Shown: piece by piece, positions 16,823 through 42,240 of the stretch
How positions within the stretch are numbered: the stretch's first letter is position 1
How the letters are laid out: each line of letters begins with the position of its first letter
Assembly (NCBI GenBank): GCA_038889075.1
Contig: JAWAHS010000002.1
Coordinates: forward strand, 204,930 to 268,929
Direction of reading: 5' to 3'
DNA from: Ignisphaera sp.
GTDB lineage: Archaea > Thermoproteota > Thermoprotei_A > Sulfolobales > Ignisphaeraceae
Length of the DNA: 64,000 nt
Made by a program: the position numbers and the translations under genes
Notes under the pieces: generated by a model
Told to the model about the DNA's origin: nothing
The model's database searches: none
The model's input: the letters and a program-made list of their open reading frames with translations, nothing else

Positions 16823-17524
16823 GTGGCATCCATAGAGATTTGGCACCTCTACTGCTCCACTTATAGTGACTCAGTGGATAGAATATTATTGCTTCATTAT
16901 CACTGGGTAAGCATATGGTCGTCAGCTACTTTAGGTATGCAATATTTATCTGGTTTTATAGAGCATTTCATATTAGTGGTTGAGTATTTAGCTAGGTGGG
17001 GACTGTGGTCTTTCTGAGGAATGGACTGGTGATTCTAGATTTAAGGTATTCCATTCAGCTTAAACGATGTCCGTGAACTCTATGTAAAGTGATCTCTATT
17101 GGATGCTGCGGAACAAAGGTGTAGCTCACTCTAGCAAATCTATAACAACCCAGGATAAGAAATAGCTTTAAGATGCAAGCATAGTTCATGTAAGTTAACA
17201 AGCGGATTTTTACCATCTTATCTCAATGGTGTATAGGTATGATTCTTCTTAATTTTAGCTAAAATGTTTAAAATATCACAGTTTTAGACGATTTCATATA
17301 GAAAGAATTTCTTGATAAATTCTACTATTTGTGGTGGGAAATGTTTCGTCTTGTCTTATACTTAATTTTGATGGGCTGTATCATAGAAAGTGTATATCAT
17401 TTACGACTAGACCGTACTTAGAGCAGCATAATAGGATAGTATATTTTGAAGAGGTTCTATAACTTTCTGGAAGCAGTGCTGTAACATAAATAAGCTTTTT
17501 AATCATATTCATCTATACCTTTTA

Positions 17525-17986
17525 ATGGTGTTCTTATTGTCGGTAAAGATGATTGATGTTAGCAGCAAGGATGAGATTCACCGAGAGGCTGTAGCGAGAG
17601 GCTGTATAAAACTTAGGAAGGAGACTGTTAGTAGGATAAAGAGTGGAGCTATTGAAAAAGGTGATGTATTCACGGCTTCAGCCTTAGCTGCTATACAAGC
17701 TGCTAAACAGACTTCCCTGCTACTACCATTCTGCCATGTTATAAGGATAGACCTTGTTAGACCTAGTATATGGATTGAAGATGATGAAAAGGTTTGTGTA
17801 GAGGTTTCTGTTAAAGCACGTGAACGAACCGGTGTTGAGATGGAGGCATTGACAGCTGTATCTCTCGCTCTTCTAAATATATGGGATATGGTTAAAGCAT
17901 ATGAAAAGGATGAGAATGGTCAATATCCACATACAGCTATTGAAAATATACATATTGTGAGGAAAACTAAGGTTACATTAAGTTAG
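17525..17986 (+). CDS. moaC: Cyclic pyranopterin monophosphate synthase
   Basis: MIDVS, KGDV, LLPFCH, TGVEMEAL, DMVK. Confidence 0.95.
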   Translation: MVFLLSVKMIDVSSKDEIHREAVARGCIKLRKETVSRIKSGAIEKGDVFTASALAAIQAAKQTSLLLPFCHVIRIDLVRPSIWIEDDEKVCVEVSVKARERTGVEMEALTAVSLALLNIWDMVKAYEKDENGQYPHTAIENIHIVRKTKVTLS

Positions 17987-17993
17987 TAATCTA

Positions 17994-18317
17994 ATGTGCG
18001 GTATGTTATTTAGAGGTGATGGTTCTATAATTTATTTGGCTCTTCTCGTAGGGCTTCTCGTAGGGCTCCTATCCAAGTTCAGGTTTAGAAGGATGAATAT
18101 TAGTAGAATTGTAAATAGATTTGTAATCGTCACAGTATTTATTCTAGTATTGCTAATAGGTATTGTGGCAGGCTATACTATTATGGCTAGGCTTTCTATT
18201 ATCGGTATTCAAGCTCTTCTCATATTGGTAACGGAACTTGCACTCCTAACGGTTTTACCAATAGTAATAGGTTTTTGTCTATCTTTACTAATTACGAGAA
18301 TTGGTAGAGGAAAATGA
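17994..18317 (+). CDS. Small membrane protein, probable N-terminal part of a split LysO-type exporter
   Basis: Three TM segments; ATGA overlap with the next gene. Confidence 0.55.
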   Translation: MCGMLFRGDGSIIYLALLVGLLVGLLSKFRFRRMNISRIVNRFVIVTVFILVLLIGIVAGYTIMARLSIIGIQALLILVTELALLTVLPIVIGFCLSLLITRIGRGK

Positions 18318-18943
18318 TAGGCAAATTAGCTGTAGTTGTACTGTTTGTTATAGGTTTTGGGATAGGTGTAGTACTCTATCTCATCAATATATCAATATAT
18401 ATACTATCCAAAGCAGTAGAGCTATTTCTATACATACTCATAGCATCAATAGGTATTGTAGTGGCTTATGAAGCTAAATCCATTAAAGAAGTTATGGCTG
18501 GTATAGATCTATCCGTAAGACTCGTTATAGCCACAATCCTAGGCTCTATATTAGGTGGCATCCTTACAGCGTTAATACTTCATAGTGATGTAATAGTATA
18601 CCTAGCTATAGCCCTTGGAATGGGATGGTATACATTCACAGGTTCGTACCTGGCAACTATCGATAGCTACCTAGGTCTTCTAGGATTCACAGCAAATATG
18701 TTTAGAGAAATAGCTACAATACTCCTCTATCCAATTCTATCAAAGAAATACCCTATTGAGGCTATATCCATTGGCGGGGCAACAACTATGGATACCACAC
18801 TACCTATTATAGCTAGATTTACAAACACTAGTGTAACTATAATTGCATTTATACACGGACTTATACTCACACTATTGATACCCATAATAATTCCAGCAAT
18901 AATGGCTACGAATCCAAAAACTTTTATCCCTAGCAATAGGTAG
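18314..18943 (+). CDS. LysO/DUF340-family membrane exporter
   Basis: GMGWYTF, ANMFRE, GGATTMDTTLP signature. Confidence 0.85.
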   Translation: MIGKLAVVVLFVIGFGIGVVLYLINISIYILSKAVELFLYILIASIGIVVAYEAKSIKEVMAGIDLSVRLVIATILGSILGGILTALILHSDVIVYLAIALGMGWYTFTGSYLATIDSYLGLLGFTANMFREIATILLYPILSKKYPIEAISIGGATTMDTTLPIIARFTNTSVTIIAFIHGLILTLLIPIIIPAIMATNPKTFIPSNR

Positions 18944-22570: not shown

Positions 22571-23215
22571 TGGTTTGCTTTAACCGAGAAACTACGTAGA
22601 TTATGTAAGGATGGGAGTGGAGTTGCTCCTAAGACTTCTATTACATGTTTTGAGGATTTCGCCACTTGGTATATACCAAAGTAGAGAGAATACGGTTGTT
22701 GTTATAAGTGATGGTACAGTGATTTTTGGGTATAGGTAATATAGAACCTTTTACAGGACTAGTTGCTATGGAGAGTAAGTGTCTTCTCTCTAAATATCCT
22801 GATGGGACTATCTATGTATCTATAGCTGTTCGCAAGAAGGATCCGGGAATATGGTCATGGAGGGCTAGAGCAAGAATTTGTAGCTATGGGTGGAGCAGTT
22901 TTCCAAACCAGATAATCAATGGTTTTAGATTTTCGGTAGTATTTAGAGGAACTTTTACTATTTTAGAGTTAGAGAGCTAACTGATGAAATGTCTATAGCA
23001 ACTATCCATGCCATAGCAAAATATGGAGAGGAAACCAGTATCTATGGAGATAGGATTATTGGGACTGTGCAGGGAATAGAATTGTATGTAAGGAAGTCTA
23101 TGACTGTTGCTGAAAAAGCTATGGAGCTCGAATATGAAATAAGGGAATTGATAGAAAGGTTCGGGAAGTACATGGAGGTACTAATAGGGAAGAACTTATA
23201 TAGAACCTATACCAT
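22571..23215 (+). pseudogene. Degraded NAD(P)-dependent malic enzyme
   Basis: Fragments in shifting frames match malic enzyme motifs in order: VAPKTSITCFEDFATWYIP, NTVVVISDGT, GIGNIEPFTGLVAMESKCLL, FPNQI.....VFRGT, TDEMSIATIHAIAKY, ELEYEIRELIER. Stops, frameshifts and large deletions present. Confidence 0.8.
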
Positions 23216-23247
23216 GAGTATAGAGAGCTTAAGGTGTAGAGAAGGCT

Positions 23248-24129
23248 ATGGGTATCAAAATGCTAGAGGAGGCTATAGAGAGAGCTGCTGTAGAGGCTAT
23301 AACAAGAGCTGTAATCTACATACCACCAGATGTTAAAGAAGCCCTTAGAAAAGTATATCGTGAAGAGGAAAGTGAAGCAAGTAGATCTCAACTAGAGGCA
23401 ATACTAAAAAACATTGAATTGGCTGAAAAGATGAAGAGACCAATATGTCAGGATACAGGGGTCATACTATACTATGTAAAGGTAGGCTACGAGTTCCCAT
23501 CATTCAAAACAGTTGAGAAAAGTCTAGTAAATGCCGTTAGGACAGCTACAAGGACCATCCCCCTAAGACCCAATACCGTCCACCCATTTACTGGGAAAAA
23601 CCCTGGCGATAACACTGGGAGATACATGCCATATCTCAACATAGAGTTCATCGATGGAAATGAACTAGAGATTACAGTAGTACCCAAAGGTGGAGGCTCT
23701 GAGTATGTCTCTGTTCTAGAAATGCCTCCCCCTGGAGAGGGTATTAAAGCAATAAAGAGAGCCGTAGTCGATGCCGTACTGAGGGCCGGTTCTATGCCTT
23801 GTCCACCTACAGTTGTTGGTGTAGGAATCGGTGGGGGTTCGGACATAGCTCTTCATCTTGCTAAGAAAGCTGCATGTCTTAGAAAGCTAGGTTCATCAAA
23901 TCCGGATCCAGAGTTAGATAAGTTGGAAAAGGAACTGTATACAGCATTGAATGAGCTTGGCATAGGTACAATGGGTATGGGAGGGAAGTCTACAGTGCTT
24001 GCTGTACACATGGACTATGCATACAGACATCCAGCTGTCCTACCCATAGGTATAGTCTTTCAGTGCTGGGCTGTAAGAAGAGCTACTGCTAGGGTTAAGC
24101 CGGATGGAAGCTACGAGGTTTTTCAGTAA
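23248..24129 (+). CDS. Class I (Fe-S) fumarate hydratase alpha subunit (TtdA-like family)
   Basis: PICQDTG, PLRPN, PKGGGSE, PCPP, GIGGG, HPA...CWA.R. Confidence 0.9.
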   Translation: MGIKMLEEAIERAAVEAITRAVIYIPPDVKEALRKVYREEESEASRSQLEAILKNIELAEKMKRPICQDTGVILYYVKVGYEFPSFKTVEKSLVNAVRTATRTIPLRPNTVHPFTGKNPGDNTGRYMPYLNIEFIDGNELEITVVPKGGGSEYVSVLEMPPPGEGIKAIKRAVVDAVLRAGSMPCPPTVVGVGIGGGSDIALHLAKKAACLRKLGSSNPDPELDKLEKELYTALNELGIGTMGMGGKSTVLAVHMDYAYRHPAVLPIGIVFQCWAVRRATARVKPDGSYEVFQ

Positions 24130-24139
24130 TTCGGGAGGG

Positions 24140-24420
24140 GTTCAGCTCTTGTATAGGTTTATATTGGTTGGTTTCATCGCCTCATACTTTTTCCTCTGCA
24201 TTCTGCTCGGGTTCTCATTGGGCTTGGGGGTATTCAGGGGCACCCCTAGACATCCACATCTTGGGTATCTCGGGGAGAGCTACTATCTAGAGCATCTCAG
24301 CGGCTCTCGAACCCCTCATCCAGCTACCTCCACACATATCGCTGTACAAGGTGTTTATAGGCGTTTCTATCAATATCAATCAATGAACAGATATGAAAAA
24401 CGAAACAATTGCACAAGGCG
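24140..24420 (-). mobile_element. Non-autonomous TnpB-derived miniature element (IS200/IS605- or IS607-type MITE)
   Basis: The minus strand encodes RYPRCGCLGVPLNTPKPNENPSRMQRKKYEAMKPTNINLYKS* (24270-24142), resembling crenarchaeal TnpB C-terminal tails. It is preceded by GGAGGT plus ATG (24319) and a TATA-like CTATAAAC. GC-rich relative to its surroundings. Removing it restores GGGAGGG-gttaat-ATG for the beta gene. Confidence 0.75.
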
Positions 24421-24426
24421 GTTAAT

Positions 24427-25029
24427 ATGGCAATCTACTACTTGAGAACACCTCTCCAGGAAGAGGATGTCAGAAAGTTAAAAGTTGGTGATGCGATATA
24501 CCTTACTGGTATCGTCGTCACGGCCAGGGATGCCGCACATAGAAGAATGATTGAGTATTTAAGGGAGGGCAAACCCCTTCCCATAGATTTAAAGGGAGGT
24601 GCGATATATCATTGCGGTCCAGTAGTTGAAAAGATCAATGATGAATGGAGGGTGGTTTCTGGAGGACCTACAACTAGTACTAGAATGGAGCTATACGAAG
24701 CTGATATAATAAAACACTTTGGTGTAAGACTTATTATAGGTAAGGGTGGCATGGGCTCAAAAACAGCTCAAGCATGTAAGGAATTTGGAGCTGTCTATAC
24801 AACTTTTACAGGAGGTGCAGGGGTTCTTGTGGCAAATGCAATTAAACGTGTTATAAGGGTTGAATGGTTAGATCTCGGGATCCCAGAGGCTTTATGGGTT
24901 CTTGATGTAGAGAATTTCGGACCTCTACTTGTAACGATTGACACTACGGGAAGAAATCTGACCGAAGAAGTTATAGAGGGAGCAAAGCGTAAACGTGAAG
25001 AGATACTTAAAAAGCTTGGGGTAATTTGA
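24427..25029 (+). CDS. Class I fumarate hydratase beta subunit (TtdB-like family)
   Basis: TARDAAH, YHCGP, GPTTSTRM, IGKGGM, WLDLGIPEA, FGPLLVTID. ATG 24427 preferred over TTG 24409, which lies inside the inserted element. Confidence 0.9.
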   Translation: MAIYYLRTPLQEEDVRKLKVGDAIYLTGIVVTARDAAHRRMIEYLREGKPLPIDLKGGAIYHCGPVVEKINDEWRVVSGGPTTSTRMELYEADIIKHFGVRLIIGKGGMGSKTAQACKEFGAVYTTFTGGAGVLVANAIKRVIRVEWLDLGIPEALWVLDVENFGPLLVTIDTTGRNLTEEVIEGAKRKREEILKKLGVI

Positions 25030-25527
25030 ATAAACAATATTAGTATTTAAAATGCATATTTGGGCCATTAAACATGCTGCACTCCCCAGCAAAGTGTTTA
25101 AAGTAGTGTACAGTACTGATTATTAATCTATAATACTATCTATTGCATTAAAAGCTTGAGAGGAAATATTACGATATTCCTTCATATATTCAATCAATTA
25201 CTTAATATGGAAAAATCTAGTGGAATTTTAAGAGCTTCTGAACATCGTTAACCATTCAAATTGTATAGATTATTGCTAATAGTGCCTACATCTACATAAG
25301 CCTCTAACAACTAAGGATTTTACAATAAGAGTCTGTAGAGAGTCTTCAGTAACATTCGATACGAGCTCGATATATGTGGCTGTAAAAGATAGGATGAAAT
25401 AAATTTAATTTGAACTCAAAAGGTAGTCAATTTAGCCATATTCATGCTATTCCCATTTATTAAAATTCGTTAAATATTATTTAGGTGTAGGTTATGGTAT
25501 TTAGATATTGTCTACTCTTTCATATGG

Positions 25528-38852: not shown

Positions 38853-41024
38853 GTGATGAACAATCGCTGTATCTATTGCCCTGGCTGTAGCTACCCTGCA
38901 TATCATACAAATCTAAATGAAGTTGTAAAAAGGGTCCAGGGGTGTGATATTGTTGTCTCTATTATTGCACAACCGAATATCGGAAAGTCAACGCTATTTA
39001 CTAGAATTACTGGTAAAATTTCTCATGTAGCTAATTTCCCTGGTACAACAGTTGATATTAGAATAGGAGAGATCACCCACAAGGGGAAGAATATATGTTT
39101 TGTAGATCTTCCAGGAATATACGGACTTTCAACTACAAGTATCGATGAAACTATAGCTAGGGAATTTATAGCTAGTGGTATTGCCGATGTACATCTGGTT
39201 CTACTAGATCCTTTAAATCTAGATAGATCCCTCTACCTAGCACTACAAGTTCTAGAAATAACACCTAGGGTTATCATAGCTATAACGAAGTGGGATATTG
39301 TCCACTCAAAAGGAGTACACATACATCTAGAGGGTATACAGAGAGCTCTTGGAGTACCTATAGTTGCAGTTTCAAGTATAACTGGTGAGGGTATTCAAAA
39401 TCTTCTGAACACTATATTAGATGTTATAGATGGACGTTCTATACATAGAGATAAACCTATCGAAATCGACTACGGTGTGTTAGAAACATACATTGGGAGG
39501 ATCAGCTCAATAATTAAGGAGCTAGGTATAGCCAGCGACCCTATCGCTAGATGGCTTGCCATAAGAGCTCTTGAGGATGATACCGTGGTTTTAGGCTATC
39601 TTAAGAGCTTTGATATGCTTTATAGAGCTATTGAATTGAGTAAAGAAGAGATCCGGCTAAAGTTTAATAGAGATAGCAGTGAATTGATTGTTGAAAGGAG
39701 ATACCAACTCTGTGAAGAGATTGCCAAGGCTACAAGTGTTAGAGTAAGCATAGCTGCAAGAACCAACCTTATTGATAAAATATTTCAGCATCCCATAACA
39801 GGATTTACAGCAAGCATCTTAATCCTTTTTGCAACATTCATGGTGGCTTTCATCATAAATACTGGCTTTCCATTAAACATGTTTTTCTCACTAATGGGTT
39901 TTGAAGACATTGCTAAATTGCTTCAGGAATATACTCTAAGCGGTTTAATAGCAAGATTATTTAGTGTGCTATCGCAATTGTTGGAGAGTTACCTACCACA
40001 TGGTACGTTTTTAGTAAGCTTCCTTGTAGATGGTATAATCGCTGGAGTTGGTGCAGTAATAACATTTTTACCACTAGTCTTCCTTGTAATATTTTTACAA
40101 TCAGCTTTAGAAGACTCTGGAATTGGTCCTAGAATGGCCCTAGCACTTCACAGTCTATTTGCAAAATTTGGTCTATCAGGAAGAGCTGTCTATCCAATGC
40201 TTATAGCTGTAGGCTGTAATGTTCCAGCAGTACTTTCCTCTAGAGTTGCCATAGACAGTTCAGAGAGGCTCGAAATTGCTATGAACATTTCATTTATACC
40301 ATGTCAAGCAAGATTACTAGTTCTCCTCGCATTTACATCCGTACTCTTTAGAAATAATCCCCTTCTCCAAGCACTTGCAATTACCACAGTTTATGGTATT
40401 GGAATACTACTCTACCTCACTATGTCAAAGCTTTTTAGAATCGCTGTGTTTAAGAGAAAAGATGATCCAGAACTTTTGCTCGAGATACCTCCCCTACACA
40501 GACCGAGTATAAGGGTTATGATGTGGAATTCGTGGGATTTAACAAAGCACTTCCTTTATAAAGCTGCGGTTGTAATCCTAATACTAAGTATAGTAATGTG
40601 GATGTTGTTAAATTTTGGACCCCAAGGATATACTAACGGAGATATTACCAGAAGTTATGGTGTTTACATTGGTGGATTGATAGCTCCCTTATTCTCATCG
40701 CTATTCAACATTGAGATGGAGGCAGCGTGGAGATTAGGGCTAGCACTTTTTGCAGGCTTTATAGCTAAAGAAGGTCTTATTTCAACATTGGCAGTGATGA
40801 GCAGTGTTGAAGAGAGTAGAGCTATAGAAACGCTGGGACTCACACTTCCTCAAGGATTTTCAATACTACTTCTATTTATGTTTTACATTCCATGTGTAGC
40901 AACCACTGTAGCTATATATAGCGAGACTAAAAGCTATAGATATAGCATATTAGTAGTGCTTTACCTATTTACAACATCTATATTTATTTCACTAATAGCG
41001 TATACAATCATGCATATGGTTTAA
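38853..41024 (+). CDS. feoB: Ferrous iron transporter FeoB
   Basis: G-domain (PNIGKS, NFPGTT, DLPG, TKWD), gate motifs GCNVPA and PCQARL, LLEIPP, AKE, YIPC. Confidence 0.95.
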   Translation: MMNNRCIYCPGCSYPAYHTNLNEVVKRVQGCDIVVSIIAQPNIGKSTLFTRITGKISHVANFPGTTVDIRIGEITHKGKNICFVDLPGIYGLSTTSIDETIAREFIASGIADVHLVLLDPLNLDRSLYLALQVLEITPRVIIAITKWDIVHSKGVHIHLEGIQRALGVPIVAVSSITGEGIQNLLNTILDVIDGRSIHRDKPIEIDYGVLETYIGRISSIIKELGIASDPIARWLAIRALEDDTVVLGYLKSFDMLYRAIELSKEEIRLKFNRDSSELIVERRYQLCEEIAKATSVRVSIAARTNLIDKIFQHPITGFTASILILFATFMVAFIINTGFPLNMFFSLMGFEDIAKLLQEYTLSGLIARLFSVLSQLLESYLPHGTFLVSFLVDGIIAGVGAVITFLPLVFLVIFLQSALEDSGIGPRMALALHSLFAKFGLSGRAVYPMLIAVGCNVPAVLSSRVAIDSSERLEIAMNISFIPCQARLLVLLAFTSVLFRNNPLLQALAITTVYGIGILLYLTMSKLFRIAVFKRKDDPELLLEIPPLHRPSIRVMMWNSWDLTKHFLYKAAVVILILSIVMWMLLNFGPQGYTNGDITRSYGVYIGGLIAPLFSSLFNIEMEAAWRLGLALFAGFIAKEGLISTLAVMSSVEESRAIETLGLTLPQGFSILLLFMFYIPCVATTVAIYSETKSYRYSILVVLYLFTTSIFISLIAYTIMHMV

Positions 41025-41073
41025 AGTATTGGAGTGGCAAATGCTGAAAGATAGGATCTAGGGTAGCTTATAT

Positions 41074-42240
41074 ATGCCTGAACTTGTGATAAATATTAGC
41101 AGCATCATATCTTCCCTCTGCCATTCTCTACTTCGTCTAGAGTCATATACGATATGTCCATACAAATGTCTATATTGCTACTCTAAATGGTATATGACTT
41201 CGCCAGCAACGATTGTTTATCCAAGAAGATTTATTCTGGATCAATTTAACACCGTAATGAGGAAGATATATAGAAGGGGGTTGAAATACATTCCATTCAG
41301 GCTTTCTACATTAGTAGATCCTTTTCCGCACCACGAGGAGCTCTACAGATTTACAGAAAAACTACTTAAAATTGCAAGTATATATGAGTACCCTTTAATT
41401 ATAAATACAAAGAGTAGTCTGATAGCTAGGAAGCCATGGATAGACCTCATTATAAAACTCGCTAAGGGAAATGCCATCCTTATTCAAATTTCTGTATCTA
41501 CTTTAAAAGATGAAATAGGTAGAAAGCTAGAACCATCAGCCCCACCACCCTCACAAAGACTTATCGTAGCCAAAAAACTTTCTGAATTAGGAATTCCAAT
41601 ATCTATACGGTTATCACCATTCATACCATTTGTATCACCAACCCTACAGGAGGAGATTAGAGAAGCTGTAGATACGTTTAAGGAATGTGGTGTTAAACAT
41701 GTAATTTTTGAAGGTCTTAGAATAGAACCTGAGAACTATAGCCAATTGGTGGAAGTAGCTTCAGGTATTGCTACAGACTTTGAAGACTATAGCATTAGAA
41801 AGGTTAAGGGCTTAAAGTCTATAGTAAGGATATCCCGAGATATTCTAGAGCCTATTTATAGAACGTATGCTAGGCTACTATCAAAGAATAGCATAGCTTT
41901 TGCTACATGTAAAGAAGGTCTTTTCAATCTACATACATCTGAAGATTGCTGTGGCTTCTATATTCTCAAGAACTGTGTTAGAAGGCCTACTCTATGGGAT
42001 GTATATAAATTTGTTTTAGAATATGGTGCTCTAGAACCTGATAGAATAATTCACAGTATTTGTAAAGAGGGTAAGCTTATATGTAGCAGTAATCTAGATG
42101 GCTATCCAAAGGAGATATCAAAGCCCCTTAAATACCATGAGAGAAGGCTACTAAAGATTCTACATAATAAAGATATTTTAGAACACCTAACACCTGTGCT
42201 AGGCATCGATGATGGGAAAGTAGTTATAAAAATGAAATAG
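41074..42240 (+). CDS. Radical SAM protein (SplB/spore-photoproduct-lyase-like)
   Basis: CPYKCLYC, STLVDPF, NTKS, LEPSAPPPSQRL, RLSPFIP. Confidence 0.8.
   Translation: MPELVINISSIISSLCHSLLRLESYTICPYKCLYCYSKWYMTSPATIVYPRRFILDQFNTVMRKIYRRGLKYIPFRLSTLVDPFPHHEELYRFTEKLLKIASIYEYPLIINTKSSLIARKPWIDLIIKLAKGNAILIQISVSTLKDEIGRKLEPSAPPPSQRLIVAKKLSELGIPISIRLSPFIPFVSPTLQEEIREAVDTFKECGVKHVIFEGLRIEPENYSQLVEVASGIATDFEDYSIRKVKGLKSIVRISRDILEPIYRTYARLLSKNSIAFATCKEGLFNLHTSEDCCGFYILKNCVRRPTLWDVYKFVLEYGALEPDRIIHSICKEGKLICSSNLDGYPKEISKPLKYHERRLLKILHNKDILEHLTPVLGIDDGKVVIKMK

Follow-up and report, generated by a model that had tools for sequence, protein, structure and literature searches.

What lies between the two fumarase genes of a hot-spring archaeon, and where did it come from? 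This question is raised by a stretch of 64,000 nt (hereafter the window) on contig JAWAHS010000002.1 of Ignisphaera sp., whose genome assembly comprises 25 contigs and 1.95 Mb and is 99.6% complete. In the window, the genes for the alpha and beta subunits of fumarate hydratase are 297 nt apart, and an initial annotation of this sequence had proposed that they are separated by a nuclease-less mini-element, derived from the transposon gene tnpB, that may express an omega-RNA, the guide RNA of TnpB. In the current study, the locus was compared with the rest of its own genome, with the genomes of relatives, and with RNA sequencing runs. Our reading, to which we give a probability of roughly 0.8, is that the intervening DNA is a polymorphic mini-element of the IS607 family that retains a guide-RNA module; this estimate refers to the identity and the anatomy of the element.

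A dispersed mini-element and its empty site

Nine near-full-length copies of the mini-element, the window copy counted, were found in the own genome (77-100% identity, E down to 1e-154), a recurrence well beyond chance. Alignment of these nine copies with their flanks, together with an alignment of 14 copies that included those of relatives, placed the family-conserved termini of the window copy at 24137..24419 on the minus strand, which gives a whole element of 283 bp. Its left end, GCCTTGTGCAA..., lies at 24419, and its right end, ...GAGCTGAACCCC, lies at 24137. When 40 nt of flank were included in the alignment, similarity extended from GCCT[TA]GTGCAA to ...GAGCTGAACCCC; the flanks were unrelated to each other and diverged exactly at GCC... 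and ...CCCC. Termination in CCCC was found in 31 of 37 extracted right ends. The eight other own-genome copies lie in unrelated contexts, and five more copies with the same architecture and the same internal junction were present in three other genomes of the genus (G003, G010, and G011). The own genome also holds nine further fragments, seven with the right end only and two with the left end only. The initial annotation had placed the insert at 24140-24420; a discrete insert is indeed present, and the ends given then were off by 1-3 nt each.

The site without the insert was found in relatives and in an RNA library. Forty relatives were searched, and in all 10 that carry both fumarase genes on one contig (G001, G005, G006, G008, G009, G012, G013, G014, G016, and G019) the gap between the genes is ~280-290 nt shorter than in the window. 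The spacer was read directly in two of them, where it measures 18 nt (G012) and 15 nt (G009), and the relatives' pre-ATG signals, GGGGGT or GAGGTG, stand 7-8 nt from the beta ATG. The exact joint came from run X1, an RNA library available as contigs only: in a 262-nt contig, 12 letters identical to window 24124-24135 are joined straight to window 24416 onward. The X1 contigs, which show 3 differences from the window over 250 positions and 3 over 386, derive from another strain, one that is ~99% identical. The insertion point is a 17-nt spacer between the alpha stop codon and the beta start codon, and the site reads GCC in element orientation. Relative to this empty allele, the inserted DNA measures 280 bp (24139..24418, with a placement ambiguous by 3 nt), and AGG on the plus strand, or CCT in element orientation, occurs at both junctions (24136-24138 and 24416-24418). 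Beyond this shared CC(T), no target-site duplication was seen at the window insertion, in agreement with the initial annotation, which had also anticipated that relatives would show an empty site. The spacer that it had reconstructed, GGGAGGGgttaatATG, needs correction: according to X1, the empty spacer runs ...GGGAGG, then CGGTTAAT, then ATG. Given the strain differences of X1 and the genomic DNA of the relatives without the insert, the sequence comparison makes a DNA polymorphism far more likely than a joint made at the RNA level. For three other own-genome copies, exact empty sites were sought in G012 and G009 and none was found, the flanks being too diverged or missing; the contig 1 locus at 207 kb aligned gap-free to G009 only when GCC was kept in the empty site, a weak indication.

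The mini-element is a miniature inverted-repeat transposable element in the broad sense of the term, as its copies are dispersed, its ends are shared with a gene-carrying element, and it is polymorphic. Terminal inverted repeats and a target-site duplication, which belong to the strict definition, were not found; the window copy has only a subterminal inverted repeat of 14 nt (79%). No complete gene, whether for a transposase or for anything else, lies inside the mini-element, whose longest frames have 30-45 codons and are fragments of tnpB.

Anatomy, parent element, and transposon family

The motifs that the initial annotation had described on the minus strand are all present: TTAAC immediately beyond the left end (ATTAACC|GCCTTG), a TATA-like box, a GGAGGT-ATG stub, and a TnpB-like tail. 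The promoter-like box, the 5′ stub of tnpB, and the whole 3′ block at the position of the omega-RNA scaffold are thus retained, as had been suggested. The left end occupies 24365..24419. It is followed by the TATA-like box CTATAAAC at 24353..24360, which is homologous to the CCTATA[AT]AG that the full-length copies carry just upstream of tnpB; a YTATAA-like box is present in 13 of 14 mini-element copies, and we take CTATAAAC to be a putative promoter. The 5′ stub (24269..24337; nt 82-151 of the mini-element) aligned to nt 253-321 of the 1.5-kb parent with a local score of 36, compared with a maximum of 26 in 200 shuffles, and BLASTP of the 21-aa stub peptide against TnpB gave no alignment. Within the stub, GGAGGT-N6-ATG starts a 10-codon frame, MRGSRAAEML*, on the minus strand. 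The 3′ module (~134 nt; 24137..24270), which comprises the final 28 codons of tnpB and the right end, is homologous to nt 1366-1500 of the parent, and its conserved block begins with CCAAGATGTGG at 24264. In the 45-codon frame that follows the stub, the first 28 residues are identical at 19 of 28 positions to residues 383-410 of the 414-aa TnpB encoded on contig 9 (E 1e-11).

An imperfect hairpin, GAGAGCC...GGCTCTC, is found in the 5′ stub at 24272-24308 on the minus strand, and it occurs in the full-length gene too. This hairpin survives a 12-nt deletion in one copy, and one compensatory change from C-G to U-A was seen in a relative (G011_C17). The single-sequence fold of the stub was not unusual (z +0.44). 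The hairpin may have a role in RNA or in DNA, or it may have been kept simply as coding sequence.

A tnpB gene with the same right end occurs at two places in the own genome, on contig 9 (~16878-18377) and on contig 1 (444705 up to where that contig ends). The parent on contig 9 is 1500 bp long, carries tnpB only, and has the same left end ~210 nt upstream of tnpB; the contig 1 copy shares the right end and has lost its left end at the end of the contig. The two TnpB proteins, of 414 and 421 codons from stop to stop, scored 104 and 101 bits against the NCBIfam guided_TnpB model NF040570 (cut-off 100) and 57-58 bits against Pfam PF07282, and they matched solved Cas12f and TnpB structures (best E 7.9e-11). 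Their translations contain intact RuvC D-E-D and zinc-ribbon motifs (IDVNFD, VLENL, CPRCG...CSRCG, and GDRDV), and no Pfam OrfB_IS605 domain was detected in them at E up to 0.01. Because the tail peptide and the DNA of the 5′ stub both align to the parent tnpB, the mini-element is the parent minus three pieces, namely the greater part of the non-coding region on the left, ~27 nt past the TATA-like box, and ~1.1 kb of tnpB. As the genome holds both a full-length TnpB parent and sister copies that share these ends, the proposal of a nuclease-less mini-element derived from tnpB is borne out; the tail does match TnpB, the relatives do not carry the 280 bp as an ancestral spacer, and the ends of the sister copies do not differ.

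The IS200/IS605 logic that the initial annotation had implied was not upheld. No Y1 (HUH) transposase was found in the 99.6%-complete genome, in which PF01797 gave 0 matches at E up to 1 and controls matched. Two serine-recombinase loci were found in the own genome. One of them, on contig 5 (38314-41579; loci L100 and L114), is an IS607 element made up of tnpA_S and tnpB. Its left end, GCCTCACGCAACTGTTTCGG..., opens with GCCTCACGCAACTGTTTCGGGTTTCATATAGGTTT and matches the parent's left end at 32 of the first 35 nt. About 70 nt past this end comes a protein with a MerR-type helix-turn-helix (PF12728) and a resolvase domain (PF00239), followed by a different tnpB, and the transposase scored 152.7 bits against the NCBIfam IS607 model NF033518 (cut-off 110). 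At its right end, the contig 5 element has nothing in common with the mini-element family beyond a subterminal stretch of 20 nt (19/20 identical) and CCCC at the terminus. Nt 26-48 of the parent's left end are an inverted copy of this subterminal right-end stretch (91% over 23 nt). In the one copy examined, a CC core (GG on the plus strand) stands at both junctions and in the empty allele, and the IS607 transposase TnpA_S is described (10.1101/2023.11.20.567912) as acting at a core dinucleotide and leaving scarless joints. On the grounds that no Y1 transposase was found, that the left end is common to the contig 5 IS607 element, that the CC core is present at both junctions, and that the joint is scarless, we assign both parent and mini-element to the IS607 family and suggest, by analogy, that they would be mobilised in trans.

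The two serine-recombinase loci have structures of their own. On contig 5, tnpA_S is interrupted by a 1.3-kb insert (~39798-41094), which carries, on the opposite strand, a frame of 386 codons that resembles TnpB only faintly (NF040570, E 0.006). The second locus, on contig 1 (340455-341131; L109/L120), is an IS607 transposase gene split by a copy of the same mini-element in the opposite orientation (340608-340882); positions 91-160 and 155-185 of the hidden Markov model are matched on either side, and excision of this copy at the CC core would make the frame whole again.

The predicted guide RNA and its target

In every characterised TnpB element, the omega-RNA is encoded across the right end and the 3′ end of tnpB, according to three reports (PMC10055086; 10.1101/2023.11.20.567912; 10.1101/2023.03.06.531077). 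The block that the mini-element retains at this position corresponds to the last 28 codons of the parent plus 45-50 nt up to the right end. When 32 right ends from 13 genomes were aligned, common homology began at CAAGATGTGG, a few nt past the deletion junction of the mini-element, and continued ~45-50 nt past the stop codon to the end, and the coding sequence upstream diverged between subfamilies. Three mini-element lineages that differ in their internal parts, of 283 bp (here), 251 bp (G002), and 255 bp (G014), all retain the last 131-135 nt, so that three independent deletion derivatives end within ~10 nt of one point. The G002 and G014 elements (L073 and L080) derive from other subfamilies of the same insertion sequence and have their own internal junctions. 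A transposase site in common with the contig 5 IS607 element, whose left end is the same, does not account for ~95 of the retained nt, which that element lacks.

Pairing in the scaffold was examined with RNAalifold, which predicted 13 pairs from the 32 right ends. In the alignment, 93.5% of cells were paired, compared with 87.5% in shuffles (0/500 as high) and 33-60% with slid partners; the percentage paired, the number of cells changed on both sides, and the covariation score each lay above all 500 shuffles. CG has become GC at pair 57-77 in 8 of the 32 sequences and at pair 58-76 in 9, and pair 51-85 is UA in 3. A column-pair scan of alignment A2 for extra or pseudoknotted helices gave mostly noise beyond the known helix. 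Two further structural candidates were dropped: an A/T hairpin near the right end, whose register shifts between copies, and a C/D-box or K-turn-like reading (GAUGA...CUGA with GGGG/CCCC), in which G85-to-A changes are unmatched at the terminal CCCC. From its position, its conservation, its retention in three independent mini-element lineages, and the limited covariation, we conclude that the 3′ block is very probably the omega-RNA scaffold of the family.

The target-adjacent motif (TAM) that TnpB would read was sought in the 10 nt before the left end of 14 mini-elements and 9 longer elements (23 copies; two spurious rows of the pattern search were dropped). The conserved left end starts with GCC in 19 of the 23, the rest having GCT, GTC, ACC, or, in one ambiguous case, CCG; in 22 of 23, this triplet is preceded by A, C, or T. 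No conserved target or TAM of 4-5 nt abuts the left end in these 23 copies, the 10 nt before GCC being variable. TTAAC, which the initial annotation had taken for the TAM, precedes the left end in 1 of 23 copies, that in the window. In the empty allele, G and CC belong to the target, which makes GCC most plausibly the target motif; a TAM of approximately GCC is predicted by analogy with the clostridial IS607 element. The right end offers CCCC before the same guide-matching flank and so differs from the target at position -3.

Since the scaffold ends ...AACCCC, the guide is predicted, by the same analogy, to start at 24136 with TCCCGAATTACTG and not with CCCTCCC, as had been suggested before. 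The predicted 20-nt guide, TCCCGAATTACTGAAAAACC (24117..24136, minus strand), is flank DNA directly 3′ of the conserved right end, and it is antisense to the last codons and the stop codon of the alpha gene. Guide-RNA-type modules number ~18 in this genome (9 mini-elements, 7 fragments, and 2 full copies), compared with 2 cognate tnpB genes. A search for second genomic targets of the 18 predicted guides gave chance-level matches only, plus one 19/20 paralogue (C12:25892-25911) without a preceding GCC. This paralogue, apparently coding, matches the right flank of the sister copy on contig 1 (~207113-207399), which has AGAGTA on both flanks, and the likeness probably reflects native sequence rather than a target duplication.

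Among the fragments, the seven with a right end only (C2:71318-71457, C12:21840-21963, C7:32942-33049, C7:69469-69591, C1:285714-285822, C8:63849-63906, and C13:35953-36078) have no adjacent tnpB frame of at least 150 codons. A solitary left-end fragment of 46 nt (C12:19463-19508) is 98% identical to the left end of the window copy and has no element attached.

Weighing of the readings and biological meaning

Internal deletions of the parent left a mini-element with the left end, the TATA-like box of tnpB, ~70 nt of the tnpB 5′ end with its hairpin, and exactly the last ~134 nt. In the mechanism that we propose, a serine transposase supplied in trans would excise and integrate this element via the CC core, by analogy with IS607/IS605 elements. 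Transcription from the retained tnpB promoter would run through the scaffold into the flank and yield an omega-RNA with the guide TCCCGAATTACTG... Together with this RNA, the TnpB of a full-length copy would cut the site once vacated, where ...AACCGCC precedes the guide match, and spare the occupied one, where ...AACCCC precedes the same sequence, and homologous repair after the cut would restore the element. That the RNA of the window copy is in fact made and is used by TnpB in trans is suggested by analogy with other TnpB elements, and we put it forward tentatively, with the odds leaning somewhat to the other side.

A number of observations weigh against our reading or parts of it. Both IS607 transposase genes of the own genome are interrupted and no intact transposase for the element was found here, so that the window copy is probably immobile now; intact homologues of the IS607 transposase were found in five related genomes (G001, G004, G005, G008, and G013). 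The closest sister of the window copy is 90% identical, and a very recent copy-out is therefore not evident. The parental TnpBs lie far under the specific models (33 bits for IS607_TnpB, cut-off 350; 38 bits for IS200_TnpB, cut-off 425), and the contig 9 tnpB has CTG at the position of the ATG start on contig 1. With regard to the RNA, the number of pairs with a change on both sides was 5, compared with 3.7 in shuffles (76/500 as high), and that of further pair types was 15, compared with 14.7 (275/500 as high). The switch between CG and GC falls inside a 24-nt block that differs at many positions and appears to have been exchanged as a unit, and so may represent one event. Pair 51-85 is C-A in 5 sequences, the window copy among them, and the fold of the window scaffold is not unusually stable (z -1.42; 14/200 shuffles as good). 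The omega-RNA proposed in the initial annotation found no match when 23000-25500 was scanned with Rfam 15 at E up to 10. The window scaffold is 76-82% identical to the scaffolds of the two intact TnpB copies, which makes loading in trans uncertain. Finally, runs X2-X4, raw RNA reads from another study, placed 0 reads on the stretch and hence constitute no test of transcription. The X1 contigs cannot give strand, ends, or level, and the right-end pieces in X1 (depth 20-50) have other flanks, come from other copies, and prove nothing on transcription of the window copy.

The genes on either side of the element are intact. The alpha gene (23248..24129, plus strand) encodes 293 aa and matches PF05681 with 310.8 bits; the beta gene (24427..25029, plus strand, with its ATG at 24427) encodes 200 aa and matches PF05683 with 174.4 bits. 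The beta gene is single-copy, as a search of the own genome gave one Fumerase_C match. Its Shine-Dalgarno sequence, GGGAGG (24133..24138, plus strand), remains beside the alpha stop codon, shifted 280 nt away by the mini-element; it now lies 288 nt from the ATG, compared with 8 nt in the empty allele. The empty allele and the relatives thus bear out the earlier suggestion that the beta gene has been separated from its Shine-Dalgarno sequence. The sequence that now precedes the beta ATG is ...CACAAGGCGGTTAAT, in which the Shine-Dalgarno-like part is reduced to AAGGCGG. On the plus strand at 24390-24426, the left end contains the A/T-rich GATATGAAAAAC ~30 nt before the beta ATG; that this stretch might act as an improvised archaeal promoter, giving a beta transcript almost without a leader, is pure conjecture.

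Other explanations can be given for these data. The 134-nt right part could be only a cis-acting transposase end that yields no functional guide RNA, its conservation then reflecting the needs of transposition and shared descent. Mini-elements must retain transposase sites, and the presence in the right end of an inverted copy of nt 26-48 of the parent's left end implies that part of the 3′ block is a recombinase site; the unremarkable stability of the fold, covariation that may rest on one block exchange, and the lack of RNA evidence are also in keeping with such a role. We nevertheless regard this explanation as unlikely. The site in common with the contig 5 IS607 element covers only the ~20 subterminal nt and CCCC, which leaves ~95 retained nt outside it, and three independent derivatives stop within ~10 nt of the same point. 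In addition, the retained TATA-like box and 5′ stub would be superfluous for recombination, and it is at this very position that the characterised TnpB elements encode their omega-RNA, as the sources cited above describe. Turning to the class of element, one could see here an IS200/IS605-type, palindrome-associated element of the Y1 kind, inserted 3′ of a TTAAC target that would double as the TAM, with a guide CCCTCCC. TTAAC does adjoin the left end in the window copy, and the TAM of Sulfolobus islandicus TnpB1, TTTAA, is similarly T/A-rich (10.1101/2023.03.06.531077). This explanation is already contradicted, and we give it very little credence, for TTAAC adjoins one copy of the 23, no Y1_Tnp was found in the genome, the left end is shared with an IS607 element, the junction of the empty allele falls inside GCC and not after TTAAC, and the conserved right end is 3-4 nt longer than the initial annotation had it.

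The remaining explanations concern the host and the empty allele. The host might keep the element mainly as a regulator of the fumarase operon, either through an RNA antisense to the 3′ end of alpha or through the left end as a new start signal for beta. Both fumarase genes being intact, the single-copy state of beta, the removal of its Shine-Dalgarno sequence, and the A/T-rich GATATGAAAAAC would suit such a role. However, the insert is absent from the ~99%-identical strain and from 10 related species and is therefore not a conserved feature of the operon, and the eight other copies lie in unrelated contexts, which makes regulation improbable as the main role. As to the joined form in X1, it could have arisen by removal of the element from RNA, in the manner of an IStron, instead of representing a DNA allele. 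X1 is an RNA library, and IS607-related IStrons are reported to splice out of host mRNA (10.1101/2023.11.20.567912). Against this stand the absence of a group I intron or any other Rfam family from the region, the origin of the X1 contigs in another strain, and the genomic DNA of the 10 relatives, which lacks the insert; we consider removal from RNA extremely improbable.

The mini-element can be compared with three known systems, each as described in the cited source. In Clostridium botulinum, the IS607/IStron elements likewise have a serine-recombinase partner, a core dinucleotide at both junctions, and scarless insertion without target duplication, and their tnpB and guide-RNA region runs to the right end (10.1101/2023.11.20.567912). 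The clostridial core is GG, with TGGG as target and TAM and TCGG at the right end, so that target and right end differ at -3, as GCC and CCC do here. The present element differs in its CC core and GCC motif, in its archaeal host, and in that this copy has no tnpA, tnpB, or intron; the TAM and the rule for telling self from non-self were measured in the clostridial system and are inferred here, and the TnpB here lies far under the IS607_TnpB model. The second comparison is with the PATE-like (palindrome-associated transposable element-like) derivatives of IS200/IS605 in Geobacillus stearothermophilus, which are also gene-less, keep both ends and the guide-RNA region, and have their transposase and TnpB elsewhere (PMC10055086). 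They differ in their Y1 single-strand 'peel and paste' mechanism and in a conserved TAM abutting the left end; neither Y1 nor such a motif was found here. The third is SMN1 of Sulfolobus islandicus, a 320-bp non-autonomous element mobilised by the ISC1733 transposase (PMC3718332). Compared by description only, it is likewise an archaeal mini-element of ~300 bp that depends on an orfB/tnpB-type insertion sequence, and it differs in that ISC1733 is described as IS200/IS605-type.

Protein-less PATE-like elements are said to 'often encode' omega-RNAs, for which the TnpB of other elements must act in trans (PMC10055086, the preprint of Meers et al.). Protein-less derivatives with omega-RNAs used in trans are hence already in print, and what is gained here is an instance with its details and no new principle. 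We found no published description of an archaeal mini-element derived from IS607 with an omega-RNA, which is not proof of its absence from the literature. The instance is well resolved, as the parent, sister copies, an exact empty site, and a transposase partner are all at hand, and it makes a concrete prediction: a GCC-type TAM with discrimination of self from non-self at -3, in parallel to clostridial IS607. If the guide RNAs are indeed produced and taken up by TnpB in trans, this would be an unreported CC-core and GCC-TAM rule for a thermophilic archaeal TnpB. A compact thermophilic TnpB with ~18 natural guide modules is available for study. On the side of the host, a polymorphic insertion uncouples the sole fumarase beta gene from its ribosome-binding site. 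On the side of the element, one may see 'guide-only' parasites of TnpB in the gene-less mini-elements of this archaeal IS607 lineage, a suggestion that we hold with more doubt than conviction. Should these mini-elements produce RNAs that TnpB takes up in trans, gene-less elements in this lineage would persist through RNA-guided homing rather than through transposase binding alone.

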